Of a stretch of 59,417 nucleotides of DNA, positions 15,870-59,154 are shown in pieces. The stretch spans positions 1 through 59,417 of IMG/VR virus record IMGVR_UViG_3300003322_000298; one strand, written 5' to 3'. The notes under the pieces are model-generated. The model saw only the letters and a list, made by a program, of their open reading frames with translations, had not been told where the DNA came from and did no database searches. The position numbers and the translations under genes are program-made. Source of the stretch: a virus. Each line of letters opens with the position of its first letter. Positions within the stretch are counted from its first letter, which is position 1.

Positions 15870-16247
15870 ATGCTGCCACCGGTATACCGCGACCTCAAAA
15901 ACTCGACGCGTGTCGTCGAGATTGTGGCCGACCGCATCTTTCGGCGCGGCGTGGTCGCGCTGCCGCAGAGCGGCCCCTACCTGACGTGGTTCCTCGTGAC
16001 TGGCGTACCTGAGAACACGCTGAGCGAGACGCCTGCTGTCGACAGGATGACGGTGCAGATCGACGTCTGGGCGCCCACGGACAAGCAATGCGAGGTTTTG
16101 GCGACGGCTGTGCGCGACGCACTGGAAGACAAAGCTCACATGACGGGGATGCCGATCGACGGACGCGATCCGGACACGAAACTTTGGCGGCTAGCGCTGG
16201 AGTTCGACTACTTCGTCGGCAGACCTGCGCTGGAGCCGACGAGCTAG
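15870..16247 (+). CDS. DUF3168-like tail completion/terminator protein
   Basis: 125 aa, position and N-terminal pattern. Ends with TAG. Confidence 0.7.
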   Translation: MLPPVYRDLKNSTRVVEIVADRIFRRGVVALPQSGPYLTWFLVTGVPENTLSETPAVDRMTVQIDVWAPTDKQCEVLATAVRDALEDKAHMTGMPIDGRDPDTKLWRLALEFDYFVGRPALEPTS

Positions 16248-16288: not shown

Positions 16289-16375
16289 AGCCCTGACCCT
16301 TGCGACTGGCTGGAGCCGCAGTGGCTTCGATGATTGTCTCTTAACCGCCCACTGGGCACTCTAGGAGCAACCGCC

Positions 16376-16882
16376 ATGACGCAAGGCACTTTGAAAACTC
16401 AGGGATCCGAGCTGTTCGGGATCGACAACTACACGACGACCGATCCGACGCTCTTCAAGATGGCATGCCCGACGGGCATTCAGGGCCTCGGCGGCCCCGC
16501 CGACCAACTCGACGACACTTGCCTCGACAGCGCCGAACGAACCTTCAAGCGCGGCCTCGGCAACCCCGGCCAAGTGACCGTTCCCTTCAATTTCATTCCG
16601 ACGAATACGTCGCATCAGCTGATTAACGCCCTCAAGGAGGACGGCCGCCTGCTGCGCTGGATGATCGGCTTCAGCGATGGCAGCACGGCCCCGACGGTCA
16701 GTGTCGACACCGACGGCGCCGGCTCCTTCGTGGCGCCTGGCTCGCGTACCACGGCCGAATTCGATGCCTACGTCGCCGACGTAAACATCGACATCGCGAC
16801 GAACGAGATCGTTCGCGGGACGATGATCCTGCAGCGCTCCGGCTCGGTGCAGTGGCACTACAACGCTCCGCAGCCGACATGA
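16376..16882 (+). CDS. major tail tube protein
   Basis: ATG 16376 with AGGAG at 16364-16368. Size and position are typical. Confidence 0.78.
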   Translation: MTQGTLKTQGSELFGIDNYTTTDPTLFKMACPTGIQGLGGPADQLDDTCLDSAERTFKRGLGNPGQVTVPFNFIPTNTSHQLINALKEDGRLLRWMIGFSDGSTAPTVSVDTDGAGSFVAPGSRTTAEFDAYVADVNIDIATNEIVRGTMILQRSGSVQWHYNAPQPT

Positions 16883-17562: not shown

Positions 17563-19716
17563 ATGGCAGCCGGTTCGATCATCATCGACCTTCTCATGAA
17601 GACCGGGTCCTTCGAGACCGACACCGATCGGGCTGCGAAGGCGCTGGAGAAGTTCAATAAGAAGGCACAGGAGGTCGGCAAGACCATCGGCGTTGCCATT
17701 AGCGCGGCGGTGGTGGGCGCCGCCGCCGCCTTCGACCAACTCGTCAAGAGCGCGGCCGACTTTAAGGACCTGGAAGAGACGATCGGCGCCAGCGCGGAAG
17801 ACATCGCCTCGCTGTCGATCGCCGCCGCCACGGCCGGCGTGAGCATCGAGTCGGTGGCCGGCGCAACGATCAAGCTCACGAAGGGGCTGACCGGTGTTGA
17901 CGACGAATCCAAGGCAGCCGGCGCCGCCCTGGCGGCCCTCGGCATCAATATCGAAGAATTCAAGCGCCTGGATCCAGTTGGGCAGTATGAGGCCGTTGGC
18001 AAGGCGCTGTCCGGCTTCGCAGATGGCGCCCAGAAGACGGCTGTTGCGGTGGCACTCTTCGGCAAGACAGGCGCCGAGCAGCTACGCGTCTTCAAAGCGC
18101 TTGACGAGGCCGGCGGTCGTCAGGTGATCCTGACGCAGCAGCAGATCGAACTCGCGGACGCCTACGCCGACAAGCAAGCCAAGCAAGCCGCTACGCTTAA
18201 GGCATACGCCCAGACGATTGCCGTCGACGCGCTGCCGGCGTTCAACGATTTCACGCAGGCGCTCACCGAGGTCGTCAAGGCCTTCGCTGGCATTGACAAC
18301 GCCGGCAAGAAGCTGGCTGGCCAGAGCCAGGCCGCGGAGTTCGCGAAGACGGCGGCCGACAGCTTGGCGCTGATCGTCGACGCCGGCCAGATGGTCGTGC
18401 GCATCTTTGAGGCGATTGGAAAGTCGATCGGCGCCCGCCTGGCGCAGGTTGCGTCGTTCGCGCGCGGCGATTTCGCGGAGGCGATCCGCATCGGCAAGGA
18501 TGCAAAAGACGAAATTGATAGCCTCCTGAGCGCTGAGAGCTTCAGCCAGAAGCTGCAGAAGGTGCGAGACGCCAACAGGCTCGGCTCGCTCGGCCAAGGC
18601 TCGGCCGATCTGGCGCGGCGGGGACGCGGTCCGGCGGCGCTGCCTCAGATCGACTTCGAGGGCCCGCAGAAGGCAGCTAAGACACCGAAGGACAAGCTTA
18701 CCGACGCCGATCGCTACCTTGAGAAACTGCGCGAGTCGACGAGCAAGGCAAACGAACTGACGGCCGTCGAAACGCTGCTCGCCGACGTCCAGGCCGGGCG
18801 CTTCAAGGGCGCCAAGGCCGGCCAGTTGGAGACGGCGCTGTACTACGCCCAGCAGGTCGACGACGCCAAGAAGCTCACGGCGCAGGAAAAGGAACTCGTG
18901 CGGCAAGCCGACGAGATGGAGAAGAAAAGCAACGAGCTGCGCGATGCTGGCACCGATGTCTTCAAGAGCACGCGCACCGACGCCGAGAAGTACAGCGCCG
19001 AATTGATCCGACTCAACGGGTTGCTTTCGGCGGGCGCGATCGACTATGACACCTATGGGCGGGCTATCAAGTCGGCGGCCGAGCAGTTCGACGATGCCAC
19101 GAAGAAGCAGAAGGAGGTTCAGGCGGCCATCGACTCATCGCTGACGACGAACGCGGCAGACGCCTTCTCTGATTTCATTAGCGGCACGAAGAGCGCAAGC
19201 CAGGCTTTCAAGCAATTCGCGAACTCGGTGATCCTCGACCTAATCCGCATCGCGGCACAAGAGGCGGCCACCAAGTTGTTCGGCGACAGCAGCAAGGGCT
19301 CGGGCTCCGGCTTTGGAGCGCTGCTCGGCAAGATCTTCGGCAGTGGTGGTTCGGTCAATAGTGGGAACGGAGCCTTCCTCGGCGACTATGGCGATGCAGC
19401 GACGGGCCTCGCCACGGGCACGAACTACGTGCCGAACGATGGCTTTCGCGCCATCCTGCACAAGGGTGAGGCCGTGGTGCCGCGTGAGTACAACCCGGCG
19501 GCCGGCGGCATTGGTGGTGGCGGCGACGTACAGATCGTGACGCCGCCCGGCGTGCCAATGACGGCCCAGGTTCAGGAAGAGCAGCGCGACGGCCGCCGCC
19601 TGAAGAAGATCGTGTTGTCGACGATGGTGCAGGATGCTCAGGACGGTGGCGTCGGCATCAAGACGATCACGGGCGTGACGGGCACGAATCGCAAACTAGC
19701 GCGTCGAGGCCGCTGA
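17563..19716 (+). CDS. tape measure protein
   Basis: 717 aa, Ala-rich helical, directly after G/GT. Confidence 0.9.
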   Translation: MAAGSIIIDLLMKTGSFETDTDRAAKALEKFNKKAQEVGKTIGVAISAAVVGAAAAFDQLVKSAADFKDLEETIGASAEDIASLSIAAATAGVSIESVAGATIKLTKGLTGVDDESKAAGAALAALGINIEEFKRLDPVGQYEAVGKALSGFADGAQKTAVAVALFGKTGAEQLRVFKALDEAGGRQVILTQQQIELADAYADKQAKQAATLKAYAQTIAVDALPAFNDFTQALTEVVKAFAGIDNAGKKLAGQSQAAEFAKTAADSLALIVDAGQMVVRIFEAIGKSIGARLAQVASFARGDFAEAIRIGKDAKDEIDSLLSAESFSQKLQKVRDANRLGSLGQGSADLARRGRGPAALPQIDFEGPQKAAKTPKDKLTDADRYLEKLRESTSKANELTAVETLLADVQAGRFKGAKAGQLETALYYAQQVDDAKKLTAQEKELVRQADEMEKKSNELRDAGTDVFKSTRTDAEKYSAELIRLNGLLSAGAIDYDTYGRAIKSAAEQFDDATKKQKEVQAAIDSSLTTNAADAFSDFISGTKSASQAFKQFANSVILDLIRIAAQEAATKLFGDSSKGSGSGFGALLGKIFGSGGSVNSGNGAFLGDYGDAATGLATGTNYVPNDGFRAILHKGEAVVPREYNPAAGGIGGGGDVQIVTPPGVPMTAQVQEEQRDGRRLKKIVLSTMVQDAQDGGVGIKTITGVTGTNRKLARRGR

Positions 19717-32873: not shown

Positions 32874-33109
32874 TGCATCGCCACGACTACAAACGCACAT
32901 CGACAGGCATCGTGATCGGCGGCCACTATGTGCGCAAGCCGCCGGCACCCACGCGCGACGCCGAGGTCATCCAGCGCTCGCTGCTCGATGGGCCCAGGCC
33001 GAGCGTGCATCTCATACTCGATTGGTGGGATCGCTGGTCGCTGCACGTTGTCGGCGGGATCATGGTCGCCGGCTTCGTGATCGGTCTCGTGCTGAAGGCA
33101 TGCGCATGA
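32870..33109 (+). CDS. small membrane protein
   Basis: ATGA coupling. C-terminal TM helix. Confidence 0.55.
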   Translation: MMHRHDYKRTSTGIVIGGHYVRKPPAPTRDAEVIQRSLLDGPRPSVHLILDWWDRWSLHVVGGIMVAGFVIGLVLKACA

Positions 33110-33303
33110 TCGCCGTCGGCCTGGGGCTGCTCGCCGTGGCATTCGTGCTATGCCTGATCGGTGACGCGCCGCTGACTGTCAGCGCATTGCCGGGGCTGGC
33201 CGACGCCGTGACGCAGGCCGCGTCCTACCTCGCGGCCGGCGGCGCGCTTCTCGTGCTCGTCGGCTTCATCATCAAGCTGGCTCACCTCGTGATCGACTTC
33301 TAG
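33106..33303 (+). CDS. small membrane protein
   Basis: ATGA coupling. Two TM helices. Ends with TAG. Confidence 0.55.
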   Translation: MIAVGLGLLAVAFVLCLIGDAPLTVSALPGLADAVTQAASYLAAGGALLVLVGFIIKLAHLVIDF

Positions 33304-33432
33304 GTGACCATCGTGCAGCCTCTGCGCGCAGGGGCGCTGCTCCTTCTGATCTTGGCGGGCGCCATGCTCGCCGCCCACTTTCTCAGCCATGACGAACAAA
33401 GAAGCGCCACCACCACTCGCACGGGACGATGA
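33304..33432 (+). CDS. possible small TM peptide (or TAG read-through extension)
   Basis: GTG immediately after the TAG, in the same frame. Encodes LRAGALLLLILAGAMLAAHFL with high GC3. Confidence 0.3.
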   Translation: MTIVQPLRAGALLLLILAGAMLAAHFLSHDEQRSATTTRTGR

Positions 33433-34258
33433 CGACGACGCGCCGAAATGGCACGCCGACAGCGGCAAGCGTGGCCGCGCCTTCTTGCGCGAGCCCGTGC
33501 CGGAGCACATGGTTTCAATCCTCGTTCGGCAGACGGCCGAGCAAAAGGAGGAGATCGAGAAGGATCGCCGCAAGGGCATTCGTTGCGAAATCTGCAAAGG
33601 CTGGCATCACGAATACGCGGTGCACCTGAGCTATGTCGGGCACGCCGCTGCGACAGCGCTTCTCCTCGAAGCCGATCTGGATTGGACGTGGGAGCCCGTC
33701 GCGTGGACGCCGGACGGCTTGCCTCGCTTCGACGCGACCGGCGGCCTGTGGATCTGGCTGCACGTTGGCGGCTTCAAGCGCCTGGGCTATGGCAACGCAC
33801 AGGGCAAGGCAAAGGGCATCCCCGGCGATCGAGAGAAAGAGGTCATCGGCGATGCGATCCGGAATGCTGCGATGCGCTTCGGCTTGGCTCTCCAGCTGTG
33901 GAGCAAGGAAGACCTTGACCTGTCGAGCGATGAAGACGAAGAAGAGGCGGCTGAGCAGCGTCGCCGCCAGGCTGCAGCCGGGGAGGGCAGCCAAGAGACC
34001 GCGCCGCCGGCTGCGTCGAAGCCTGCTCAGCCTGCCGCGAAGACAAGCCAACCGGCTGCTGCCGGCGAGGCCACAGTGAGGAGTGCGCGGCCCTACCCGC
34101 AGGCGGATTTCGAACGCAACTTCAAGGCTTGGAGCGAAGCGCTCCTCGCCGGCACGAAGACGATCGACGAGACGCTCGCGATGATCCGCAAACGCGGCAT
34201 CCTGAGCGCGGAACAAGAGAAGAGGCTTCGCGATGTCGTGAAGCCCGCCAACACCTGA
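33389..34258 (+). CDS. Rad52-like single-strand annealing protein
   Basis: VIGDAIRNAAMRFGLALQLWSK motif, followed by a YqaJ exonuclease gene. Confidence 0.68.
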   Translation: MTNKEAPPPLARDDDDDAPKWHADSGKRGRAFLREPVPEHMVSILVRQTAEQKEEIEKDRRKGIRCEICKGWHHEYAVHLSYVGHAAATALLLEADLDWTWEPVAWTPDGLPRFDATGGLWIWLHVGGFKRLGYGNAQGKAKGIPGDREKEVIGDAIRNAAMRFGLALQLWSKEDLDLSSDEDEEEAAEQRRRQAAAGEGSQETAPPAASKPAQPAAKTSQPAAAGEATVRSARPYPQADFERNFKAWSEALLAGTKTIDETLAMIRKRGILSAEQEKRLRDVVKPANT

Positions 34259-34267
34259 GACCACTGC

Positions 34268-35929
34268 ATGCAAACCGACCTCGCCCTATTCCTTCAGCTG
34301 CCCATCGTCACGCATGACGTGGAGATCGGCAGCGCCGAGTGGCTGCAGCATCGCGTCAGCCTGTTCAACGCCAGCGACGCGCCCGCCATGGCGGGGGTGA
34401 GCCCGTACAAGAAGCGCAGCGAGCTGGTGCGCGAGATCGCGACAGGCGTCGTTCGGGAACCCGATGACTTCCGCGAAGCCCTGTTCGCAAGCGGCCACCG
34501 CGCAGAGGAATTGGCGCGCCCCGTGGCCGAGGGGGTGATCGGCGAAGACCTCTATCAGATGGTTCTCTCGCGCGGTCGCCTCGGTGCCTCGCTGGACGGC
34601 CAGACCTTCGATGGCAAGACCGGGTGGGAGCACAAGATCCTGAACGAGACGATCCGGCAAGCTATCCCGGATTGCGGCGACGCCATCTGCGAATCGCCTG
34701 TCGAATTGCCCGAGGTCTATGCTGTGCAGTGCGAGCAGCAAATCATCGTCGGCGGCCTCGACCGCGTGCTGTTTTCGGCCACGCGATGGAACGCGCGCGA
34801 AGAGTTGATCGAGCAGCGACATTGCTGGTACTACCCGAACCCCGAGCGCGCGCAGCGCATCCTTCTCGGCTGGGCGCAGCTGTTTCAGGACGCCATCGCG
34901 TGGCAGCCAACCGAAGCCGTCGAAGAGCCCAAGAAGGGCACGACACGCGCAACGCTTCCGGCTCTCGTCGTGCAAGTCGAGGGGAAGGTCGTCGAGAGCA
35001 ATTTCGGTCCGTATCGAGACGCCGCCCTGGCGTTCATCGACTCGATCAATACGCGGCTGGACACCGACGACGACTTCGGCCAGGCCATGGCAGATGCCGA
35101 ATTCTGTCGCGCGATCGAAAAGAAACTCGCCGCGCTCGAAGAAAACGTGATCAGCCAGGCTGCCAGCGTGAACGAGCTGATCGACGGCATGCGCCAGATT
35201 CGCGAGCAGAGCAGGCAGAAGGCCCTCAGCCTTGAGAAGAAAATTGAGACCCGCAAGCGCGAGCGCAAAGAGGAGATCGCCGCTGATGCGCAGCAAAAGC
35301 TCGACCGGCATATCCTCGCGCTGAATGCCGGTTTGCCGGACCCCTGGGTGCAGCCGCGTCGCGGCCAGTGGGGCGACGCCATGAAAAACAAGCGCAGCCT
35401 CGCCACATGTCAGGAAGCCGTCGACGTGATGCTCGCCGACATGAAGGTGCGCGCCAGCGAAGAGGCGGCCACCCTGGCGACGAATGCGAAGGTGGTGGAA
35501 GAGGAGTGCGAGGGGAACTGGTTGCTCTTCGTTGACTTCGAGCGCCAAGGCCTCAAGCCCACCGAGGATTTCCGCGCGCTGGCGTTGATGCGTCACAGCC
35601 AGGCGAAGGACCGCGATGCGAAGGACAAGAAGCTCAAGGAGGATGCGCAGGCAGCAGCAGCGCCGGCACCTGGCGCTGCTGTCTTCGCCAGCATCGCGCA
35701 CGCTACGCCGCGTGCCGCCCGCACGATGCCGCCGCTCAGCACGAAGGACGTATGCGCGCTGCTCGGATTCGAGGTATCCGTCGGCTTCCTGACGCAGCTC
35801 GGCATGCACGAGTGCGCGCGTCCCGATGGCAAGAAGACCGGCACATATTGGCCCGGCGAAAACTTCCCGCTGCTTTGCGCCAAGCTCGCCGAGCACCTGC
35901 AGAAGATCGTCAGCAACTACGGCAAGTGA
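34268..35929 (+). CDS. YqaJ-type exonuclease with long C-terminal extension
   Basis: GSAEWLQHRVSLFNASDAPAMAGVSPYKKRSEL N-terminal signature. Confidence 0.78.
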   Translation: MQTDLALFLQLPIVTHDVEIGSAEWLQHRVSLFNASDAPAMAGVSPYKKRSELVREIATGVVREPDDFREALFASGHRAEELARPVAEGVIGEDLYQMVLSRGRLGASLDGQTFDGKTGWEHKILNETIRQAIPDCGDAICESPVELPEVYAVQCEQQIIVGGLDRVLFSATRWNAREELIEQRHCWYYPNPERAQRILLGWAQLFQDAIAWQPTEAVEEPKKGTTRATLPALVVQVEGKVVESNFGPYRDAALAFIDSINTRLDTDDDFGQAMADAEFCRAIEKKLAALEENVISQAASVNELIDGMRQIREQSRQKALSLEKKIETRKRERKEEIAADAQQKLDRHILALNAGLPDPWVQPRRGQWGDAMKNKRSLATCQEAVDVMLADMKVRASEEAATLATNAKVVEEECEGNWLLFVDFERQGLKPTEDFRALALMRHSQAKDRDAKDKKLKEDAQAAAAPAPGAAVFASIAHATPRAARTMPPLSTKDVCALLGFEVSVGFLTQLGMHECARPDGKKTGTYWPGENFPLLCAKLAEHLQKIVSNYGK

Positions 35930-39237: not shown

Positions 39238-39344
39238 GCGCCTTCACCATTTGGAGGGTGGGGGAGCGGCAGCTAGGCGGCTCCGACGCTCTCATGGCAG
39301 AGCTGAATGTCGCCCGCGACGAGGCGAGAAAGGAGCGAGCATGA
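39234..39344 (+). CDS. small hypothetical protein (36 aa)
   Basis: ATGA coupling at both ends fills the gap between the neighbouring genes. Confidence 0.4.
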   Translation: MSAFTIWRVGERQLGGSDALMAELNVARDEARKERA

Positions 39345-40237
39345 GCGAGAAGACCGAAATTTCCTGGACCGATGCGACCTTCAATCCCTGGTGGGGATGT
39401 CAGAAGGTGAGCCAGGCCTGCGACAACTGCTATGCGGAACGCGACGCGCATCGCTTCGCACCGGGCCGCGTGCTGTGGGGCATCGACAGCGAACGCCGGG
39501 AGTTCGGCGACAAGCACTGGAACGAGCCGCTTCGCTGGGCACGCACGATGCCGGCAAAGCTCGGCCGCCGTCCTCGCGTCTTCTGCTCGTCGATGGCCGA
39601 CGTGTTCGACAACAAGGCCCCTGAAGGCGCGCGCGATCGGTTGTGGAAGCTGATCGAGGCGACGCCCGAGCTTGACTGGCTTCTGCTGACAAAGCGCGTC
39701 GGGAACGTCGATGCCATGATCCCTTGCAGGTGGCGGGCCGGCCTGCCTTCAAACGTCTGGCTCGGCATCACCGTCGTGAATCAGGAAGAGTTCGATCGCG
39801 ATATCGTCAAGCTGCTGCACATCCGCGCCCGCATCAAGTTCCTCAGCATGGAGCCGCTGCTCGGCCTGGTGCGCATCAACGTGGCGCGCGTAGGCTACAA
39901 GAGCGGCCTTATCGGGGTCGATGAGCGATGCGACCATGTGGACCCGCTGCGAATTTTCGACGGCATCGACTGGGTCATCGTCGGCGGCGAGAGTGGGCCG
40001 AAGGCCAGGCCGATGTACATCGACTGGGTGCGGTCTCTGCGAGATCAGTGCGCGAGCGCTGGCGTTCCTTTCCACATGAAGCAATGGGGGGAATGGTCGG
40101 CGCCCGGTGTGAGTTGGAATGATGCTAAACCGGAAGACGCCGTCGAAGACAAACTCGCGATCTTCAAGGTCGGCAAGAAGGCCGCGGGCCGCGTGCTCGA
40201 CGGCGTGACTCACGACGCTTTCCCGGTACCGCGATGA
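39341..40237 (+). CDS. phage Gp37/Gp68 (DUF5131) family protein
   Basis: TEISWTDATFNPWWGCQKVSQACDNCYAE N-terminal signature. Confidence 0.85.
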   Translation: MSEKTEISWTDATFNPWWGCQKVSQACDNCYAERDAHRFAPGRVLWGIDSERREFGDKHWNEPLRWARTMPAKLGRRPRVFCSSMADVFDNKAPEGARDRLWKLIEATPELDWLLLTKRVGNVDAMIPCRWRAGLPSNVWLGITVVNQEEFDRDIVKLLHIRARIKFLSMEPLLGLVRINVARVGYKSGLIGVDERCDHVDPLRIFDGIDWVIVGGESGPKARPMYIDWVRSLRDQCASAGVPFHMKQWGEWSAPGVSWNDAKPEDAVEDKLAIFKVGKKAAGRVLDGVTHDAFPVPR

Positions 40238-44334: not shown

Positions 44335-44840
44335 ACGTCGACGACATCAGGCGAGAGGCGAGGATCAGTGATTGCGGGCGATTCCGCTACTTCCTGCGCA
44401 GATCTTGGCCGGAGATTTCGCCATTCGGCGCACAGCGCCTCGTCGTGATCATGCTCAATCCGAGCACGGCCGATCACCAAGTCGACGATCCGACGGTGCG
44501 CAAGATGATGTCCTTCGCGATGCGCGAGGGGTTCCGCGAGGTGACGATCGTTAACCTCTTCGCCTACCGCTCGTCATCGCCAGGCGTGCTGAAGGCTCAC
44601 GGCTTCCCGGTCGGCGTCGAGACAGACGCCTTCATCACGGCCGCCGTCAGGATGTCAGACGCAGTCCTCTGCGCCTGGGGCGCGCATGCCGAAGGCCTGG
44701 CTCGCGTCGACGAGGTGCGAGCGATCTTGCGCCGCTACCCAATGCTGCCGATCTTCTGTTTGGGCAGGACTAAGGCGGGGGAGCCTCGCCATCCGCTCTA
44801 TCTGTCGAATGGCACACCTTTCGAGGTCTTTAAGCCGTGA
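44331..44840 (+). CDS. DUF1643 family protein
   Basis: RYFLRRSW...VVIMLNPSTAD...DPTVRK...IVNLFAYR...PRHPLY. Confidence 0.8.
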   Translation: MNVDDIRREARISDCGRFRYFLRRSWPEISPFGAQRLVVIMLNPSTADHQVDDPTVRKMMSFAMREGFREVTIVNLFAYRSSSPGVLKAHGFPVGVETDAFITAAVRMSDAVLCAWGAHAEGLARVDEVRAILRRYPMLPIFCLGRTKAGEPRHPLYLSNGTPFEVFKP

Positions 44841-49240: not shown

Positions 49241-49923
49241 CCCACTACACCCCCGGCTGGCCACCCCTCGCCCTCCTCCTGAACGACAGTCCCCCGACAT
49301 CGAAGGCAGAGAAGGTGGAGGTGAAGCGTCGCACTCCTGAGCAAGAGGAGGCGGATCGGAAGAAGGACGTGCCGTTCGCCGACTGCGGCAACGAGGGCTG
49401 CGGCTGGCGCGGCCCGCTTTCCGAGACGTGCAGGCTTGGCAGTATCGGTCCCCTGTGCCCGAGATGCCGCGAAGTTGCAGAGCCCGACGCCCCACCCTCC
49501 AAGCCAGCCACGCAGGCCGGGGAGTGGATGGACTGCCACGAGGGGATGCCAGATCTTGCGCCGGGTACCTATGAATGGCGAAACAAGATCAGCCACGTCA
49601 CTTGTGCGCCTGGCGCATGCAGCCTGCGGCAGATCATCAACAGTGATTTCGAACGCTGGCAATACCGCCTCCTCACTCCCGCCCAGGAGGCGGGGAAGAT
49701 GGATCCTGTCTATTGGCTGAGTCGCAGACACGGTGTTGTCGTCCGTCGTCGCGTTGGCGGCGGCTTCGAGATGTGGCACCCGAACGATCCTCGCTGGACG
49801 CTGTCCAGCGATCCTGACATGCCTGTGCACGACGCGTCGGTGTATGAGCCCATCTACACCGGAGACACTCGCATCGCTGGCTGGGATTTGGACAGCCAAG
49901 GGAACCCGAGGGGTGGTGCATGA
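49237..49923 (+). CDS. hypothetical protein
   Basis: ATGA coupling. Cys cluster CGNEGCGW...CPRC. Confidence 0.6.
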   Translation: MTHYTPGWPPLALLLNDSPPTSKAEKVEVKRRTPEQEEADRKKDVPFADCGNEGCGWRGPLSETCRLGSIGPLCPRCREVAEPDAPPSKPATQAGEWMDCHEGMPDLAPGTYEWRNKISHVTCAPGACSLRQIINSDFERWQYRLLTPAQEAGKMDPVYWLSRRHGVVVRRRVGGGFEMWHPNDPRWTLSSDPDMPVHDASVYEPIYTGDTRIAGWDLDSQGNPRGGA

Positions 49924-50174
49924 GCACGAAGCACACGCACTGGGGCGTCGAGTACCTGACCAACTCTTCCGGCCGGCGCAGGGTTTGGCGCCTTGCACTC
50001 TCGTCGATCCGCCGCGCAAAGCACACTGCCATGCAGATCGCGCTCGATGACTTCATCGGGGCTGACAACACCGGCGCACGCTGGGGCCAATGGCACGCCA
50101 TGCGCGACGCGGGCCAGATCCGCGCCGTGAAGCTGACGATCACGAAGACCCAAGGAGAAGACCATGCAAAGTGA
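49920..50174 (+). CDS. hypothetical protein (paralog family A, intact copy)
   Basis: ORF. A near-identical partial copy lies at 51780-52029. Confidence 0.6.
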   Translation: MSTKHTHWGVEYLTNSSGRRRVWRLALSSIRRAKHTAMQIALDDFIGADNTGARWGQWHAMRDAGQIRAVKLTITKTQGEDHAK

Positions 50175-50346
50175 AGCGCCCGACTACTGGAACCACTCGG
50201 TGAAGTTCTGCCTCTTCTGCAACAAGGAAGGCCACCTCACGAACGAGTGCTGGTCAACGCACGCCATCAACACGCCTGCGCAGAAGGAACTGGCACGCCT
50301 CGCTTACCTCGCCTCGCCATCCCCCCAGCCCGCAGAGAAGGCAGAG
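49928..50346 (+). repeat. direct repeat copy 1 (partner 51782-52201)
   Basis: 50036-50346 is near-identical to 51891-52201 (311 nt, about 3 mismatches by eye). The 5' part is identical, then a divergent patch follows. Confidence 0.9.
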
Positions 50347-51042
50347 CCGGTGGGGGAGGTTGTCGAACTCAGCAACGGCGAAAAACACCTGCGCTGGGCA
50401 ACGATGAAATTCCCCCCTGTCGGCACCAAGCTTTACGCCGCACCCCTGCCCACGGCTCCAGAGGGGGCGGAGGCCGCATTCCGCGCCACCGATCAGGTGC
50501 TCGACCTGCTGGTCGCATCCGGAAACATCACCCGCGAGAAAGCCTTTCAGTGCCGCGACATCTGGAAGCAGTTCTTCGCCTACCCCGCCGCACCCCGCCA
50601 AGCAGCGCAGGAGGGGCTACACCCTACAACCGCAGACCTCGTGCGCCGATTTGCAGAAGCGCTTGCGGACAAGCTGCGCGCCGCCGAACAGAAGTACGGC
50701 TACAGCGATGGTTGGGCGTCACCGGACTGGATGGATGAATGCCGCCAGCATTTGTTGGAGCATGTCAAAAAGGGCGACCCGCGCGACGTTGCTGCCTACT
50801 GCGCATTCCTTTGGCATCACGGAGCCTCGACCACCCCCTCACCAGCCGCCCAAGCGCCAGGCGGGGAGCAGGAACTGATCGAGCAGTTCCGCGCGAAGCT
50901 CCAGACTGTGTGCAACGAGGCTGCTCAAAACGTCGGCAAGGCCATTCCAATCCCGAAGGAAATCGCTGCCGAGTGGCGAGCCTTTGCACGCGGGGAGCCT
51001 TCGGTGTTTGATCTTCTTTTCGAGAAAGACGATTCGGCATGA
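50164..51042 (+). CDS. CCHC zinc-knuckle protein (paralog family B, copy 1)
   Basis: C-LF-C-NKEG-H-LTNE-C at residues 16-29. Confidence 0.68.
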   Translation: MQSEAPDYWNHSVKFCLFCNKEGHLTNECWSTHAINTPAQKELARLAYLASPSPQPAEKAEPVGEVVELSNGEKHLRWATMKFPPVGTKLYAAPLPTAPEGAEAAFRATDQVLDLLVASGNITREKAFQCRDIWKQFFAYPAAPRQAAQEGLHPTTADLVRRFAEALADKLRAAEQKYGYSDGWASPDWMDECRQHLLEHVKKGDPRDVAAYCAFLWHHGASTTPSPAAQAPGGEQELIEQFRAKLQTVCNEAAQNVGKAIPIPKEIAAEWRAFARGEPSVFDLLFEKDDSA

Positions 51043-51236
51043 ACGCTATCGAACACAAGCTGCTGCAACCGATGAAGCCAATGGGCTTCACACCGACTTG
51101 CAGCGACCTCGAGCACGAGTGCCCTGACGTTCCGGACAAAGTGGCTTGCTACCTCTACGAACCACAGCGCGGCATGTGCCCGTACCTGCGAACCCCTCCC
51201 AAGACCCCCGCAGCCACCGAGGGGGAAACGCCGTGA
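51039..51236 (+). CDS. hypothetical Cys-rich protein
   Basis: ATGA coupling. Confidence 0.5.
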   Translation: MNAIEHKLLQPMKPMGFTPTCSDLEHECPDVPDKVACYLYEPQRGMCPYLRTPPKTPAATEGETP

Positions 51237-51442
51237 GCAGGCCACGCGGCGGCAAACGCTACTTCGAGGCACAGGGGCGGTCTGCGAAGTCCAAGGGCCT
51301 TGCGATTAGCTGGGGGCGCGTCGAACGCCTGTCATGGCCGGAGTGGGCGCGCCAAGCCTGGGCGCGCGGCTGGATCAACCAGGGGCCTCTGTACGCCACC
51401 ATCACTCGCGCTGCTGCCTCCCTTGCAAAGGAAGCACCATGA
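51233..51442 (+). CDS. hypothetical protein
   Basis: GTGA coupling. Confidence 0.48.
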   Translation: MSRPRGGKRYFEAQGRSAKSKGLAISWGRVERLSWPEWARQAWARGWINQGPLYATITRAAASLAKEAP

Positions 51443-51783
51443 CCCTCTTGACCGAAGAAAAAAAGGAAGAAATCTACAACGCATGGCGCGATGCTGGCGA
51501 CGATGAGAGCTATGGCGACCTCATGGACCGCGTTCAGCAAGCCGTCCTTGCCGAGGTGGCAGGGAAGTGGAAGCTGGTGCCGGTGGAGCCGACCCAGGAG
51601 ATGTGCCAAGCTGCAGTCGAGACCCCGGGCATGGTCGCCTTCTCCGGTGATGCACAGATGACCCGTATGCGCCAGCATCAAGAGCATTGGGCAACGCCAT
51701 ACCCGGGTGAAGGCACGGTGCTGGAACAAGTCTGGCGCGCCATGCTCGCTGCCGCTCCTTCTCTTCCTGAGGTGGGAGAATGA
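51439..51783 (+). CDS. hypothetical protein (paralog family E, copy 1)
   Basis: Shares AVLAEVAGK..LVPVEPT.EM and MLAAAPSLPEVGE with 53198-53470. Confidence 0.6.
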   Translation: MTLLTEEKKEEIYNAWRDAGDDESYGDLMDRVQQAVLAEVAGKWKLVPVEPTQEMCQAAVETPGMVAFSGDAQMTRMRQHQEHWATPYPGEGTVLEQVWRAMLAAAPSLPEVGE

Positions 51784-52029
51784 AGCACACGCACTGGGGC
51801 GTCGAGTACCTGACCAACTCGTCAGGCCGGCGCTGGGTTTGCGCACCTTGCACTCGGGTCGATTCGCCGCACGAAGTTCGAAGCCATGCTGATCGCGCTC
51901 GATGACTTCATCGGGGCTGACAACACCGGCGCACGCTGGGACCAATGGCACGCCATGCGCGACGCGGGCCAGATCCGCGCCGTGAAGCTGACGATCACGA
52001 AGACCCAAGGAGAAGACCATGCAAAGTGA
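51780..52029 (+). pseudogene. frameshifted paralog of 49920-50174
   Basis: N-terminal 18 aa match copy 1. One extra base near 51840 shifts the frame (stop at 51903-51905). The C-terminal 47 aa are conserved in the +1 frame. Confidence 0.5.
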
Positions 52030-52201
52030 AGCGCCCGACTACTGGAACCACTCGGTGAAGTTCTGCCTCTTCTGCAACAAGGAAGGCCACCTCACGAACG
52101 AGTGCTGGTCAACGCACGCCATCAACACGCCTGCGCAGAAGGAACTGGCGCGCCTCGCTTACCTCGCCTCGCCATCCTCCCAGCCCGCAGAGAAGGCAGA
52201 G
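51782..52201 (+). repeat. direct repeat copy 2 (partner 49928-50346)
   Basis: See copy 1. The offset changes from 1854 to 1855 across the divergent patch. Confidence 0.9.
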
Positions 52202-52645
52202 GCGGTCGCAGTCATCGGAAGCGGCTTCCAATTGCTGTGGACGGGCCCCGCGTCATTCGCAGAGCACGCGCGCAAACACGGCCTCAAAGTTGGCTCGCTG
52301 CTCTACGCCGCACCCCTGACCACGGCTCCAGAGGAATGGCGCGAAGAGGCATGCAAGCTCGTGGTCGATCTGTATCGAGACACACAGAAGCTGAGCGGCT
52401 CGCAGAACGCCGCCGAACGACTGCTGGAGCTGCTCGCCACCCCATCACCAGCCGCCCAAGCGCCAGCCAGTGAGCAGGAGGCGAATGAATGCGAGTCCTG
52501 TTTGGGCACAGGGCGCACCGACGACCCTGAAGAGTGCCCATGCTGTGGCATGGCCGGTTGTCGTTCGATCGACTGTCCCGATTGTTCCGGCACTGGTCAC
52601 ACCCCTCCCAAGGCCCCCTCAGCCACCGAGGGAGAAGCGCCGTGA
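52019..52645 (+). CDS. CCHC zinc-knuckle protein with DnaJ-type CxxCxGxG fingers (family B, copy 2)
   Basis: The same N-terminal ~60 aa as 50164. C-terminal CESCLGTG...CPCCG...CPDCSGTG. Confidence 0.68.
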   Translation: MQSEAPDYWNHSVKFCLFCNKEGHLTNECWSTHAINTPAQKELARLAYLASPSSQPAEKAEAVAVIGSGFQLLWTGPASFAEHARKHGLKVGSLLYAAPLTTAPEEWREEACKLVVDLYRDTQKLSGSQNAAERLLELLATPSPAAQAPASEQEANECESCLGTGRTDDPEECPCCGMAGCRSIDCPDCSGTGHTPPKAPSATEGEAP

Positions 52646-52857
52646 GCGAGAAGGCGCCCATCAGCGATGCCGTTCGGATCATCTGCCGCGCGCATTTCGA
52701 CGAAGAAAACTCTGGATGCTCACGGTGCCCCATTCGTTCCGCTTGTCACTCAAGCCCAACCATGAACGTCACCTATGACGGGCTCAATGAATGGCGCATC
52801 CGGATGAATGAGGCTGCCGAAGCCCATCTAGCCACCCCCACTAAGAAATCCCCATGA
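52642..52857 (+). CDS. hypothetical Cys-containing protein
   Basis: GTGA coupling. Confidence 0.48.
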   Translation: MSEKAPISDAVRIICRAHFDEENSGCSRCPIRSACHSSPTMNVTYDGLNEWRIRMNEAAEAHLATPTKKSP

Positions 52858-53201
52858 CCACAGACCGCGAACTTTTGGAGAAGGCTGCGAAGGCGGCGGG
52901 GATTGAGCACGAAGGAGAGGCTGGCGACTGGCTTGCAGGCCGCGGTAATCTCGCGCTGCTCATAAAGGGGACGCAGAAAGTCTGGAACCCCCTCACCGAC
53001 GACGGCGATGCGCTGCGGTTGGCGGTGAAGTTGGGGTTCAGCCTGAGTATCGGTACTGCTGGCTGCATGGTGCGCTATGAGCGGCCCCCAGGCGACTTGT
53101 GGATTGAGGAACGCCGAACGGGCACAGATCAGGACATTCCCGCCGCCACTCGCCGAGCCATCGTCCGCGCTGCCGCCTCCATTGCAAAGGAAGAAGCATG
53201 A
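52854..53201 (+). CDS. hypothetical protein
   Basis: ATGA coupling. WNPLTDDGDALRLAVKLG, common in small phage proteins. Confidence 0.58.
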   Translation: MTTDRELLEKAAKAAGIEHEGEAGDWLAGRGNLALLIKGTQKVWNPLTDDGDALRLAVKLGFSLSIGTAGCMVRYERPPGDLWIEERRTGTDQDIPAATRRAIVRAAASIAKEEA

Positions 53202-53470
53202 GCCTATTGACCGAAGAAAAAATCAACACGCTCATCAGCCAGAGCGAGGTCTACCAGTACCACCCCGGCGCGATCTTGGAATTCGCCCGCGCCATCGAGA
53301 AAGCCGTCCTTGCCGAGGTGGCAGGGAAGGGGTATCGGCTGGTGCCGGTGGAGCCGACGCGCGAGATGATCGATGCCTACTTGGCTGCCGATGTCCGATT
53401 CCCCTCAGCACGCAGCGATTGGGCCGCCATGCTCGCTGCCGCTCCTTCTCTTCCTGAGGTGGGCGAATGA
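53198..53470 (+). CDS. hypothetical protein (paralog family E, copy 2)
   Basis: See 51439-51783. Confidence 0.6.
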   Translation: MSLLTEEKINTLISQSEVYQYHPGAILEFARAIEKAVLAEVAGKGYRLVPVEPTREMIDAYLAADVRFPSARSDWAAMLAAAPSLPEVGE

Positions 53471-53733: not shown

Positions 53734-54122
53734 CCGCCCCCCACCTGCCGGTTGTGGCGTGGCGCTACGAATTCTGCCTAGACGAAAAGCCGGTAGAAGC
53801 GATTGTCCTGGATGAGCGGATTCCCGCGCGCACCGCGACCGAGCAGCCCCTCGTCCGCCAGTCAGACGCCTTAGCCGCTATCTCTGCGGTTAGGGAGGAG
53901 GTGGAGGCGCTTCGGAAGGATGCGGAGAGGTGGCGCTTTTGCGCTGAGGGGCACATGTTTCCAGAGTTCTGCGGCCACGATACCGGATCGCCCACCGGCC
54001 AAAGCTGGTACATGCCAACCTCGCCGATCAGGAAGCCGCCAATCTTTCAGACGCCAGGAGAAGCTGCCGACGAGTACATGCAGTTCGTCGCAGCTCGCGC
54101 CATCCGGTCGGGTGGGAGGTGA
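53730..54122 (+). CDS. hypothetical protein
   Basis: ATGA coupling. Confidence 0.52.
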   Translation: MTAPHLPVVAWRYEFCLDEKPVEAIVLDERIPARTATEQPLVRQSDALAAISAVREEVEALRKDAERWRFCAEGHMFPEFCGHDTGSPTGQSWYMPTSPIRKPPIFQTPGEAADEYMQFVAARAIRSGGR

Positions 54123-54123
54123 G

Positions 54124-54849
54124 GTGAATGAGCTGGCACTTTTCGCTGGCGCTGGAGGCGGCCTACTCGCCGGCAAGCTCCTTGGATGGCGACCCGTCTG
54201 CGCCGTGGAGCTCAATCCCTACCGCATCAGACGACTCATGCAGCGACAAACTGAGGGGCACCTTCCACCGTTCCCAGTTTGGGACGATGTCTGCACCTTC
54301 GACGGACGCCCATGGCGCGGCATTGTTGACGTCGTTTCGGGAGGCTTTCCGTGCACCGACATCAGCAGCGCCGGCAAGAAGGCGGGCATCGAGGGTGAAG
54401 CCTCTGGCCTTTGGGTGGAGATGGCCAGGATCATTCGCGAGGTTCGACCCCGCATCGTCTTCGTGGAGAACGCGGCAGCACTCGTTCATCGAGGACTCGA
54501 GCGAGTTCTCGGAGACCTGGCCAGCATGGGGTTTGATGCTCGCTGGGGAGTGCTTGGATCTGACGACGTGGGCGCCGACCACGGCCGCGCGCGGATCTGG
54601 ATCCTGGCCTACCCCGTGCCACGGCTCCAGCCATTGGGGCGGAACGTTTCAAGAGGTCGGTGGCAGCGGCAACAAGTTGCGCAACACGCCGACCGGGAAG
54701 CTCTATGTGAACCCGGATTTTTGGGAAAGCCTGATGGGATGGCCGATCGGATGGAGCGGAACCGCGCCATTGGAGACGGCCAGGACCCGCGAGTGGCTGC
54801 GGCAGCTTTCCGCGCCCTCGCTGCCGGCTTCATCGATCCTCGAGGCTGA
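54124..54849 (+). CDS. DNA (cytosine-5)-methyltransferase
   Basis: LFAGAGGG (motif I), GGFPCTDIS (IV), FVENAAAL (VI), GADHGRARIWILA (VIII), C-terminal RNRAIGDGQDPRV (motif X-like). GTG start; an alternative GTG lies at 54112. Confidence 0.72.
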   Translation: MNELALFAGAGGGLLAGKLLGWRPVCAVELNPYRIRRLMQRQTEGHLPPFPVWDDVCTFDGRPWRGIVDVVSGGFPCTDISSAGKKAGIEGEASGLWVEMARIIREVRPRIVFVENAAALVHRGLERVLGDLASMGFDARWGVLGSDDVGADHGRARIWILAYPVPRLQPLGRNVSRGRWQRQQVAQHADREALCEPGFLGKPDGMADRMERNRAIGDGQDPRVAAAAFRALAAGFIDPRG

Positions 54850-55172: not shown

Positions 55173-55538
55173 ATGTATGCACGAAACAAGGAAACGATTG
55201 TCGACCGCCGCGAAATGCTCCGAGTCAAGGTCAAGAGCCTGGCCGAAGAGGCCCGCATCATCCGCCGCGAGGAGGTCCGCACATGGGGCGCCCTCAGGCA
55301 GGAGCTGCAGCACCACCGCACACGCGATGTGCGCTGCGCCGCGCGGGCAGCCCATCTTGCGCTGGGCTTCCTGAAGGGTCGCACGCTGACCCAGATGGAA
55401 GCCAGGCGCTGGCAGGGCATGCACCCGGCCATGGCGAAGGCCATGGATGAAGCGCTATTCGCGGAGGTCGGCCGCCTGCTCAAGAAGTACGGGCCGGCCG
55501 GCTTCACGATCCCGGTCGAGGTAAAGAAAGCGGCCTAA
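55173..55538 (+). CDS. hypothetical protein
   Basis: ORF. Confidence 0.55.
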   Translation: MYARNKETIVDRREMLRVKVKSLAEEARIIRREEVRTWGALRQELQHHRTRDVRCAARAAHLALGFLKGRTLTQMEARRWQGMHPAMAKAMDEALFAEVGRLLKKYGPAGFTIPVEVKKAA

Positions 55539-55547
55539 GGCCGTGGC

Positions 55548-55622
55548 GCGCCCTTAGCTCAAAGGTAGAGCGACGGTCTCTAAAGCCGAGGGTTCAGGGT
55601 TCGATCCCCTGAGGGCGCACCA
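55548..55622 (+). tRNA. tRNA with CUA anticodon (amber suppressor-type)
   Basis: Full cloverleaf read by hand. Anticodon loop C-U-CUA-A-A with the anticodon at 55580-55582. TTCGATC T loop, A73, encoded CCA. Confidence 0.85.
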
Positions 55623-55949: not shown

Positions 55950-56254
55950 AGCGCTTCGCACCTGGCGACGTCTGCATGATCAGCTACGGCGGTTCATACG
56001 ATGGCATGGTCGTTGTTCTGCGCGAGCAGTCACCGCATGCTCATAGGATCTGGCGCATTGAAGGCAAAGTGCCCAACAAGAATCTGCGGAACAAGCTCGT
56101 GGAGCCGGCGCTTCACGAAAGAATGCTGATACTCCTGCGCGAAGACCCCGGCGTCGACGAGATCAACCTCGTACGGATGGCACGCAGCGGCAGCAAGGTG
56201 GCCGCCGACGCGCTGGCAATGCGTCGCACGCAAGCCCTGCAATCCAGGCTATGA
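55946..56254 (+). CDS. hypothetical protein
   Basis: ATGA coupling. Confidence 0.55.
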   Translation: MKRFAPGDVCMISYGGSYDGMVVVLREQSPHAHRIWRIEGKVPNKNLRNKLVEPALHERMLILLREDPGVDEINLVRMARSGSKVAADALAMRRTQALQSRL

Positions 56255-57826: not shown

Positions 57827-58120
57827 ATGCTGACCGAGCCCGAAGTCAAGAAGCCCGGCCTCATCGTGTTCTCAAGCCGGCAGCGCATGCGCAAGGCGCT
57901 GATCGCGCACGGCATGCGCTGGGGCTGCAAGCTCGTGCCGGGGAAGGACGACGTCGTCGCCGCCACGGGCCGCACGTGGCATTACCGGCTCATCCGCAAC
58001 CCGCAGGAGGCCGACGCCGCCACCAAGGGCCAGAGATTCGCCGAGATCGCGCTCGACGCGCGCGGCGCGCGGCCCGACTTGGCCACATTGGCGCTTCTAC
58101 GGCTGGCGCTGGCGCGATGA
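57827..58120 (+). CDS. hypothetical protein
   Basis: The ATG follows 1 nt after the upstream stop. Confidence 0.55.
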   Translation: MLTEPEVKKPGLIVFSSRQRMRKALIAHGMRWGCKLVPGKDDVVAATGRTWHYRLIRNPQEADAATKGQRFAEIALDARGARPDLATLALLRLALAR

Positions 58121-58524
58121 AAAAGCAGCCCCGCATCCAAAGCCTGAAGCCGGTGATCGGCATGCTCAAGATTGGGCCGGCTGTCATGGAGTCCCTTCCA
58201 CAAGATCCAACGAGTTGGCGCGCCAACAAGACGAGCAGCACGCAGCGCGGTTACGGCTACCGCTGGAAGCTGGCCCGCGATGCCTACCTGAAGGCTCACC
58301 CAATCTGCGTCATGTGCGAAGAAAAGGGCCTGATCGTCGCGGCGAACGTGGTCGACCACCGGATTGCCCACCGCGGCGATCAGCGACTCTTCTGGGACCG
58401 CCTGAACTGGCAGAGCCTATGCAAGCCACATCACGACAGCCACGCCCAGAAGCGCGATCGCGAGGCGGCGAAAGGCGCATGGCTCTACAGCATTCCGGCT
58501 CCACCTGAGGATGACCCATCGTGA
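58117..58524 (+). CDS. HNH endonuclease (terminase-associated type)
   Basis: CVMCEEKG...VDHRIAHRGD...LCKPHHDSH. Lies near the genome end, upstream of terS. Confidence 0.85.
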   Translation: MKKQPRIQSLKPVIGMLKIGPAVMESLPQDPTSWRANKTSSTQRGYGYRWKLARDAYLKAHPICVMCEEKGLIVAANVVDHRIAHRGDQRLFWDRLNWQSLCKPHHDSHAQKRDREAAKGAWLYSIPAPPEDDPS

Positions 58525-58979
58525 CGATCTGCATCCACACTGGCAAGGCCTGCCGCTGCCAGCCTCAGGAAGGCGTTCTCTGCGAGTTCGGCCCGCAGCC
58601 GCCCTACATCAACGGGCCGACGAAGCTACCGCAGCCCATCAAGCTCTCGCAGAACATACGCCTTTGGGACGAGGCCGCGCTGCACAAGCTCTGGGCCGAG
58701 GCATTCGAGGCTGGCCGCAGCGTGCGCCAAGCCATGCACGCCCCCAGGGACGCGCGCAAGATCCGCGAACCTTCGAGCATCGGTTGCCCTGGTCTGCAAG
58801 TGCCAGCGGAGCCCATTCCAGCGTGCACATCATGGCTGCGTCACGACTGCCCGCCTCCAACGGTCGAGGTCGTCTCACCTGACCCCGCCATGCGCGCCTA
58901 CCGCGAAGGCGACAAGATCGTGCTGCACAGGGATGACCACACCCAGCCTCCCACCGACTGGACTACCCAGACCCGCTAG
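58521..58979 (+). CDS. hypothetical protein
   Basis: GTGA coupling. Ends TAG GGC TAA. Confidence 0.55.
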   Translation: MTICIHTGKACRCQPQEGVLCEFGPQPPYINGPTKLPQPIKLSQNIRLWDEAALHKLWAEAFEAGRSVRQAMHAPRDARKIREPSSIGCPGLQVPAEPIPACTSWLRHDCPPPTVEVVSPDPAMRAYREGDKIVLHRDDHTQPPTDWTTQTR

Positions 58980-58997: not shown

Positions 58998-59073
58998 GCC
59001 CTCATAGCTCAGCTGGTAGAGCAGCCGCCTTGTAAGCGGCAGGTCCGAGGTTCGAGCCCTCGTGTCGGCACCA
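58998..59073 (+). tRNA. tRNA-Thr(UGU)-like
   Basis: Canonical D, anticodon (GCCGC-CTTGTAA-GCGGC) and T arms, with CCA. The acceptor stem has C.C (4:69) and U.U (5:68) mismatches. Confidence 0.6.
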
Positions 59074-59078
59074 CACAT

Positions 59079-59154
59079 AGCGGGATAGCTCAGATGGAAG
59101 AGCACCTGGCCCATACCCCGGCCGTCGAGGATTCGAGCGCCTCTCCCGCTTCCA
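59079..59154 (+). tRNA. degenerate tRNA-like element with CAU anticodon
   Basis: Perfect 7-bp acceptor stem and D arm. Defects are C33 instead of U33, a U.C mismatch in the anticodon stem and A.G at 53:61. Confidence 0.4.

Follow-up and report, generated by a model that had tools for sequence, protein, structure and literature searches.

The 59,417-bp virus record IMGVR_UViG_3300003322_000298 (positions 1 to 59,417; "the window" hereafter means this whole stretch) is a phage genome of 64% GC that carries a tRNA gene with the anticodon CUA, which pairs with the stop codon UAG. The tRNA gene lies directly downstream of a gene for a small protein, here called X, and homologues of X in many unrelated contigs are likewise found next to tRNAs or tRNA-like elements with stop-reading anticodons. 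The genome uses the standard code, and the stop codon of X avoids the codon that is cognate to the partner tRNA. The reading that we prefer, with a probability of roughly 0.6, is that the tRNA is one half of a two-part cassette of X and suppressor tRNA in a standard-code phage, in which it probably mediates read-through of stop codons.

The CUA tRNA gene

The tRNA was analysed with ARAGORN, with the Rfam tRNA model RF00005 and with a covariance model of our own for tRNAs in general. ARAGORN placed the anticodon cta at position 33 of the gene, i.e. at 55580-55582. RF00005 covered 55548-55619 over model positions 1-71 of 71, with a score of 65.7 bits (E = 4.5e-12; the gathering score is 29 bits), and our own model gave 84.7 bits. 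This was the top Rfam tRNA score in the window (65.7 bits versus 62.0 for a Thr-UGU and 39.7 for a Met-like tRNA). The cloverleaf is canonical: an acceptor stem of 7 bp (GCGCCCT/AGGGCGC) starting with G1-C72; a D arm GCTC-AAAGGTA-GAGC with a 4-bp stem and G18G19; an anticodon arm ACGGT-CTCTAAA-GCCGA with A.A at 27:43 and U.G at 31:39; a variable loop of 5 nt; and a T arm CAGGG-TTCGATC-CCCTG, followed by A73 and an encoded CCA. The nucleotide at position 37 is a purine, the T loop conforms to TTCGAnC, and CUA occupies the canonical positions 34-36, as in an amber suppressor. The 27:43 pair is the only non-standard one in the Rfam alignment, and the cloverleaf, at −29.7 kcal/mol, is practically as stable as the minimum-free-energy fold (−30.3 kcal/mol). 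An earlier reading of the DNA alone (the sequence-only reading) had proposed this fold by hand and had argued that the short variable arm excludes Leu, Ser and Tyr types; every arm is present in the sequence as described, the coordinates and the position of the anticodon were recovered by ARAGORN and Rfam, and the 5-nt variable loop supports the exclusion. That 55548-55622 is a genuine CUA tRNA gene is in our view practically certain.

ARAGORN labelled the gene tRNA-Pyl, which reflects the CUA anticodon alone. The pylT architecture has a 6-bp anticodon stem, a 3-nt variable loop and a small D loop without G18G19, and it lacks a TTCGA T loop. The D loop with GG, the 5-nt variable loop and the TTCGATC T loop do not fit this architecture, and no pyl-related Pfam matches were obtained among the non-structural proteins scanned.

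The tRNA starts 9 nt past the stop codon of X and ends 18 nt before the ATG (55641) of the next open reading frame (ORF). The X stop codon itself lies in the loop of a GGCC-TAA-GGCC hairpin (Table 1), which may be a processing or spacing element.

Protein X and its family

X is a basic, all-helical protein. In the family an N-terminal helix with the invariant pattern DRREMLRxK..LAxEAxIIR is conserved, together with further invariant His, Arg and Gly residues. A word-index search of a large protein database yielded 193 homologues with E-values down to 5e-35, and a hidden Markov model of the family retrieved 3,131 representatives of 50%-identity clusters at E ≤ 1e-3 (1,935 at 1e-10). AlphaFold2 predicted three long helices with a mean pLDDT of 88.7. 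No match to X was found in Pfam, PHROGs, NCBIfam, PADLOC or the sequences of the PDB; 25 aligned family members did not match any PHROG at E ≤ 0.001, and the longer homologues contained no known domain. A Foldseek search with the predicted structure gave nothing significant in the PDB, and the matches in BFVD were to uncharacterised phage proteins only.

Most family members end in Ala-Ala or Val-Ala in the alignment. This C terminus resembles the ssrA-tag degron, and X may therefore be a short-lived substrate of ClpXP. Read-through of the X stop codon would mask the Ala-Ala or Val-Ala end.

X adjoins stop-reading tRNAs in unrelated genomes

The sequence-only reading had identified the tRNA correctly and had missed its conserved pairing with the upstream ORF. 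The first three contexts of X homologues that were opened, all on unrelated contigs, held a UCA tRNA 9 nt after the gene, a CUA tRNA 8 nt after it, and a tRNA-sized gap. Loci were then fetched via protein X alone, 59 from IMG/VR and 80 from metagenomes, which left 125 after removal of duplicates; these were searched with ARAGORN and our covariance model, and "near X" was taken to mean no more than 400 nt before or 100 nt after the gene. Of the 125 loci, 82 had a tRNA or tRNA-like element of the stop type near X (UCA in 53, CUA in 25 and UUA in 4); 7 had only sense tRNAs nearby, and 36 had nothing. Elsewhere in the same loci the proportions were reversed, with 94 sense against 23 stop-type tRNAs (p = 2e-27 for the contrast). 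The calls of ARAGORN alone gave a similar picture: 20 stop-type and 14 odd-loop against 22 sense tRNAs near X, versus 7, 9 and 127, respectively, elsewhere (p = 1.5e-9). In 14 loci, including the window with its spacer of 9 nt, the element begins 6–9 nt past the X stop codon; the others lie mostly 89–127 nt before the X start codon, and a few overlap the 3' end of X. Acceptor stem and discriminator base vary among the partner tRNAs, whose common trait is the stop-codon anticodon.

No further conserved neighbour protein was detected around X among these loci. The absence of a conserved third gene indicates that the unit consists of X and the tRNA, set in varied phage backbones. The window agrees with the rest of the family in having X adjacent and on the same strand, in the spacing, in the stop anticodon and in an X stop codon that is not cognate to the tRNA; it is highly probable that its tRNA belongs to this conserved cassette. 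Cultured carriers of the pair are the Stenotrophomonas phages DLP5, DLP3 and Summit. In DLP5 the hypothetical protein DLP05_071 is X, and an annotated tRNA-Sup-CTA follows 7 nt later; DLP3 and Summit carry X as well. The Sup(CTA) tRNAs of DLP3 and DLP5 have been listed without comment (PMC7326821).

The recurrence of the pair bears on the simplest alternative, which is that a Trp-, Lys- or Met-like sense tRNA recently gained CUA by mutation or sequencing error and is tolerated, with no selected function, on account of the rarity of TAG stops in the phage and the shortness of the infection. The anticodon arm is indeed only one or two substitutions away from a tRNA-Trp(CCA) arm and contains the A.A mismatch at 27:43, the tRNA is known from a single genome that has no close relatives, and incidental suppressor tRNAs have been described in isolates such as phiKp24 (PMC8386662). 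However, independent accidents would not place the pair, at fixed spacing and with any of three stop anticodons, in dozens of unrelated contigs, and the CUA tRNA is the best-scoring tRNA of its genome. We consider an accidental suppressor very unlikely.

The stop codon of X depends on the partner anticodon

Beside CUA tRNAs, X terminated with TAG in 1 case, TGA in 15 and TAA in 9; beside UCA elements the numbers were 22, 8 and 22, respectively. For the TAG and TGA columns Fisher's test gave p = 2e-5, and 1.7e-4 after collapsing X sequences at 70% identity. Thus, the stop codon of X avoids the codon cognate to the partner tRNA, a dependence that we take as a sign of real suppression. When the cognate stop was read as sense, the gain in ORF coverage in the X loci was no larger than for the other stop codon, and there was thus no indication of recoding.

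Many of the UCA partners form a recurrent class of tRNA-like RNAs of about 70 nt, found next to X at L150:1332-1402, in L155, L158, L164, L183, L218 and L271, and in some 30 other loci. Their acceptor stem of 7 bp co-varies, the T arm is normal, CCA is usually encoded, and an ordinary D arm is absent; the anticodon stem is extended and carries a nearly invariant 8-nt loop, CUUUCAAU, which contains UCA. ARAGORN misses most of them or labels them 'Glu ttc' or 'ttca'. These elements could be opal suppressors or four-base decoders.

Such unusual partners also allow a reading in which the tRNA acts in cis or as a structural RNA, either as punctuation for RNase P and RNase Z that releases or stabilises the X mRNA, or as a ligand or decoy bound by X. 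The stereotyped spacing to X would fit, as would the many partners with no D arm, 8-nt loops and low covariance-model scores, and the stop-codon hairpin that abuts the tRNA in the window. Against this, a processing signal needs no restriction of the anticodon to the complements of the three stop codons and would not push the X stop off the cognate codon; moreover, the copy in the window is fully canonical (U33, A37, G18G19, a TTCGA T loop and encoded CCA). Overall, a cis-acting or structural role is improbable.

The genome uses the standard genetic code

A gene call based on codon usage gave 97 genes, of which 86 terminate with TGA, 7 with TAA and 4 with TAG. The latter four (stops at 2438, 16245, 33301 and 58977) are the same as those listed in the sequence-only reading, whose statement that the genome is not recoded and has no large gene split by TAG agrees with our gene calls: in-frame TAG was not found inside any gene, and the structural and replication genes are all open. 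TAG occurs 113 times on the plus strand versus 367 times on the minus strand, an asymmetry that is probably due to codon structure. A Pfam scan of the non-structural ORFs between 35.9 and 59 kb revealed no release factor, aminoacyl-tRNA synthetase or other translation gene. The window therefore shows neither in-frame TAG in conserved genes, which characterises the recoded phages, nor, among the ORFs scanned, the accessory code-change genes, which are optional in that class.

These data also speak to the possibility that the tRNA marks the beginning, or is a leftover, of stop-codon recoding, with rare TAG and a suppressor in place before in-frame TAG spreads in the late genes. TAG is the rarest stop codon (4 of 97), the packaging and structural genes lie a few kb downstream of the tRNA, and the published model of recoding includes standard-code relatives with acquired suppressor tRNAs (bioRxiv 10.1101/2021.08.26.457843). 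But not a single gene has an in-frame TAG, the GC content is 64% whereas that model starts from low-GC genomes (bioRxiv 10.1101/2021.08.26.457843), and neither a release factor nor a synthetase was detected in the non-structural genes scanned. In addition, the X loci show no extra ORF coverage with the cognate stop as sense, and the cassette also exists in UGA- and UAA-reading forms. We judge a recoding intermediate distinctly unlikely.

TAG is flanked by coding-like sequence on the coding strand at one site only, the junction of the large terminase (TerL) gene and the capsid gene. Read-through of the TerL TAG would enter the ORF of the fused protease and capsid protein in frame, with no stop codon between, which is an argument for programmed read-through of particular phage genes, for instance to a terminase-capsid fusion. 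However, the TAG overlaps the ribosome-binding site of the capsid gene (tAGGAG) and thus belongs to the signal for the next gene. An in-frame, stop-free junction was also present in 6 of 25 relatives with no suppressor tRNA in the flanking sequence examined, mostly with TGA (5 of 21 TGA cases and 1 of 4 TAG cases). Since the same arrangement is found in such relatives, the junction is judged to be incidental, and a terminase-capsid fusion was rejected as a selected feature. Read-through of the other three genes would add 1, 38 or 42 codons (Table 1). The single codon is followed by TAA, and the two longer extensions score as non-coding by codon usage, below the 5th percentile of real genes, by which coding extensions past these stops were ruled out. 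The proposal in the sequence-only reading that the suppressor tunes read-through of specific phage genes is thus not supported, and as the cassette occurs in unrelated genomes with no conserved neighbour, we consider programmed read-through highly improbable.

Isotype and charging

The resemblances noted on first reading, of the acceptor stem to tRNA-Arg(UCU) and of the anticodon arm to tRNA-Trp, were borne out by comparison with known tRNAs. The acceptor stem matches E. coli argU at every position, and the anticodon arm differs from that of the tRNA-Trp(CCA) of mycobacteriophage Phlei at positions 35 and 43 only. An arm CGGU-(C/G)UCUAAA-(G/A)CCG, which resembles tRNA-Trp arms, is common to the tRNA in the window, the tRNA-Sup-CTA of phAss-1 and the tRNA(cta) of Sinorhizobium phage Phosso. 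The best single match was a CAU tRNA from Tunturiibacter phage Tunturi_5 (85% identity); when the anticodon was masked, Met-CAU (83%), other CUA tRNAs (74–79%), Lys (77%), Trp (77%) and Arg-UCU (76%) came closest. According to identity rules, U35 favours glutaminyl- (GlnRS) or lysyl-tRNA synthetase (LysRS), and A73 fits Lys and not bacterial Gln or Trp. A strong dependence of GlnRS on U35 has been reported (PMC11122139).

The E. coli amber suppressor su7 (supU) offers a comparison: it is reportedly a tRNA-Trp with C35U that is charged mainly with Gln. The loop in the window, CUCUAAA, equals the Trp loop CUCCAAA with C35U, on a Trp-like anticodon stem. Unlike su7, the tRNA in the window has the acceptor stem of argU, with A73 instead of G73 and G1-C72 instead of A1-U72. 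Because of these differences, charging by GlnRS or by tryptophanyl-tRNA synthetase (TrpRS) appears doubtful.

Proposed mechanism

X and the tRNA would be transcribed together, as suggested by their location on the same strand, the distance of 9 nt between them and the 18 nt to the next gene, and the tRNA would be cut out by host tRNA-processing enzymes. A host aminoacyl-tRNA synthetase would then charge it, with Gln, Lys or Trp as the likeliest amino acids by E. coli precedent, and the charged tRNA would compete with release factor 1 at UAG during infection. We consider suppression of UAG during infection likely. The phage itself would be largely insulated, since only 4 of about 97 genes end with TAG, one of them is backed up by TAA one codon later, and X ends with TAA. 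As the likely target, the unrelated backbones, the lack of a conserved neighbour and the existence of UAG-, UGA- and UAA-reading versions favour translation termination in general, in genes of the host or of competitors, over any single phage gene. The suggestion in the sequence-only reading that the tRNA perturbs host termination is plausible; its further suggestion, that the tRNA counters defences that deplete tRNAs, finds no support, as a reader of a stop codon would not be able to replace a depleted sense tRNA.

The partner tRNAs resemble each other only in the stop anticodon, which suggests that X acts on suppression or termination, or on tRNA maturation, and not on one synthetase-tRNA pair. 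It might antagonise termination, aid the maturation or use of the tRNA, or limit the damage caused by read-through. The explanation is at its weakest where the role of X is concerned; that X is a functional cofactor is a tentative proposal, for which we would give somewhat less than even odds. In the most far-reaching version, X and the tRNA would make up a mobile, self-contained nonsense-suppression cassette with which standard-code phages rewrite termination in the infected cell; X would be its protein cofactor, perhaps an antagonist of release factors or a factor dedicated to maturation or delivery, and the partners with the CUUUCAAU loop would constitute a new UGA-reading or four-base-decoding class. 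This version is possible, yet on balance doubtful.

Several observations weigh against read-through by an X-tRNA cassette. About a third of the X loci have no stop-type element nearby, and short contigs account for some of these, not all. Many UCA partners depart from the canonical form (length of about 70 nt, lack of a normal D arm, the 8-nt CUUUCAAU loop), which makes their decoding ability uncertain. X has no informative homology or fold match. The amino acid carried by the tRNA is not predictable, as the sequence-only reading had already stated, because the nearest tRNAs span several isotypes; A73 together with G1-C72 falls outside the identity sets of bacterial Gln and Trp. Depletion of the cognate stop beyond X is only marginally significant. 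In the X loci, the other long ORFs terminate with TAG in 10% of cases when the partner is CUA, against 18–19% in the other loci, a weak shift in the same direction as that of X (chi-square p = 0.019; p = 0.08 in a per-locus test). TAG accounts for 4 of 88 stops in the window and for 94 of 923 in relatives whose GC content is similar, a trend only (p = 0.09), and significant depletion of TAG was therefore rejected. Scans of viral, genome and metagenome collections with the exact pattern of the anticodon arm gave no matches, and no close relatives that might show conservation of the CUA anticodon of the window were found in the collections searched. A looser pattern of the arm retrieved similar CUA tRNAs from 21 unrelated viral IMG/VR contigs, which had no proteins in common with the window and no X in the flanks examined; X is thus not needed by every phage suppressor tRNA.

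CUA tRNAs were also seen in IMG/VR contigs of about 62% GC, as pairs some 300 nt apart at L125:672-1059 and L140:11745-12132 and as a single gene at L144:302-378; in L125 and L140 one tRNA of the pair has a Gln-like U1-A72/G73 acceptor end. Recoding of TAG in these two contigs was considered and rejected, as the apparent in-frame TAGs lie in antisense-like frames with nonsense translations.

Relation to known systems

Suppressor tRNAs of phages have been discussed almost exclusively as recoding tools of low-GC gut phages, and in standard-code phages they are listed and then passed over. The recoded phages (crAss-like phages, Lak, phAss-1 and others, in which TAG = Gln) resemble the window in carrying a CUA tRNA of their own, and the anticodon arm is shared with phAss-1. 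They differ in that the window has no in-frame TAG, a GC content of 64% and no release factor or synthetase among the non-structural genes scanned. At its acceptor end the tRNA in the window has G1-C72/A73, versus the Gln-like U1-A72/G73 of phAss-1 and several IMG/VR examples, and an X-like partner has not been reported for the suppressor tRNAs of recoded phages. Suppressor tRNAs in standard-code relatives of recoded gut phages have been interpreted as a step towards recoding (bioRxiv 10.1101/2021.08.26.457843).

Other parallels are DLP3 and DLP5 (Sup-CTA) and phiKp24 (Sup-TTA), which like the window are standard-code phages with a stop-reading tRNA of unclear purpose; for the Klebsiella phage phiKp24 no purpose was given (PMC8386662). 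DLP5 holds the same cassette as the window, although the papers list the tRNA only and annotate X as a hypothetical protein. The tRNAs of the window and the DLP phages are not orthologous, as their acceptor stems and discriminator bases differ. A precedent for X is Cef of phage T4, a protein of 71 aa that is needed to process the T4 tRNA cluster (PMC8076793). The two are alike in role only, both being small phage proteins tied to phage tRNAs; X is longer and is tied specifically to stop-reading tRNAs. Similarity of X to Cef was not detected via PHROGs (E ≤ 0.001), on the assumption that Cef is represented there.

The suppressor tRNA itself is thus of an already known kind, and it is the pairing with X that is new. 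In our incomplete coverage of the literature, no account turned up of such a pairing, of its extension to all three stop codons or of a partner gene whose own stop codon has adapted. New is a family of more than 3,000 clusters (at 50% identity), unannotated until now and tied to tRNAs that read UAG, UGA or UAA, in many standard-code environmental phages, including those of high GC content. Together with the adaptation of the X stop codon to the partner, this suggests that phages commonly employ read-through as a deliberate strategy assisted by a protein. X could serve as a marker for suppressor tRNAs that are missed by standard predictors, and the tRNAs, together with a candidate suppression-enhancing protein, are possible parts for genetic-code engineering. 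The cultured phages DLP3, DLP5 and Summit make the pairing testable.

Genome, gene content and relatives

The genome is siphovirus-like (Table 1). The genes for the small terminase (TerS), TerL and the fused protease and capsid protein are followed by two small genes and the portal gene; the location of the portal 3' of the capsid gene is unusual. Megablast against phage isolates gave no relevant match to the window, and the best match of the capsid protein was 44% identical. For TerL the identity was at most 60% in IMG/VR and at most 64% in GTDB genomes (at most 59% for full-length matches), so that no close relative was found in phage isolates, IMG/VR, GTDB genomes or the metagenome collection. 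Distant relatives by TerL occur as prophages in Burkholderiales, Acetobacteraceae, Lysobacter and Rhizobiales, from which we conclude that the host is probably a high-GC proteobacterium. A CUA tRNA was found in none of 114 related loci.

Table 1. Coordinates of the features of the window discussed in the text.
Feature	Coordinates	Strand	Evidence and remarks
Small terminase (TerS)	168-686		PHROG match
Large terminase (TerL)	683-2440	+	PHROG match; stop TAG
Fused prohead protease-major capsid protein	2453-4462	+	PHROG match; single 669-aa ORF
Portal	5171-6610		PHROG match
Tail terminator-like gene	15870-16247	+	PHROG match; stop TAG; 38-codon extension if read through
Major tail protein	16334-16882		PHROG match
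Tape measure	17563-19716		PHROG match
65-aa gene	33106-33303	+	Own gene call; stop TAG; 42-codon extension if read through
Gene X, 121 aa	55173-55538	+	High coding score; stop TAA; 9 nt upstream of the tRNA
GGCC-TAA-GGCC hairpin	55531-55543	+	Sequence; X stop codon in loop, directly before the tRNA; terminator scan flagged the opposite strand
tRNA gene, 75 nt, anticodon CUA	55548-55622	+	ARAGORN, Rfam RF00005, own covariance model, sequence
Anticodon CTA	55580-55582	+	ARAGORN and Rfam model alignment; in 7-nt loop CTCTAAA (C32, U33, A37, A38)
152-aa gene	58521-58979	+	Stop TAG; one codon, then TAA (back-up stop)

Two further tRNA genes lie near the right end of the genome. The Thr(UGU) tRNA at 58998-59073 (plus strand; 62.0 bits) has two acceptor-stem mismatches. 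The CAU (Met-like) tRNA at 59079-59154 (plus strand; 39.7 bits) has A1-U72, U73 and one non-standard pair each in the anticodon stem and the T stem, and was not listed by the whole-window Rfam run at the gathering threshold. Two additional minus-strand calls of ARAGORN, a tRNA-Arg(cct) at 49632-49720 and a tRNA-Gly(gcc) at 56163-56251, each of 89 nt, are probable false positives, as they are located inside plus-strand coding sequence and Rfam is silent on them even at E = 5.

Other recognisable genes, at 53920-54849, 58117-58524, 39341-40237, 44445-44840 and 33389-35929, are listed here in that order: a C5 cytosine DNA methylase gene; an ORF whose HNH-like motif was recognised by eye, without a family match, and which precedes the terminase by 1.5 kb when the genome ends are joined; genes for a DUF5131 and a DUF1643 protein; and genes for a RecT-like annealing protein and, with it, a RecE-like exonuclease. 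Finally, a segmental duplication of about 1.8 kb (49922-51800 versus 51776-53470, in blocks that are 85–95% identical) has given rise to paralogous pairs of small early genes, one of which (50164-51042 and 52019-52645) has an N-terminal CCHC-like motif in both copies.

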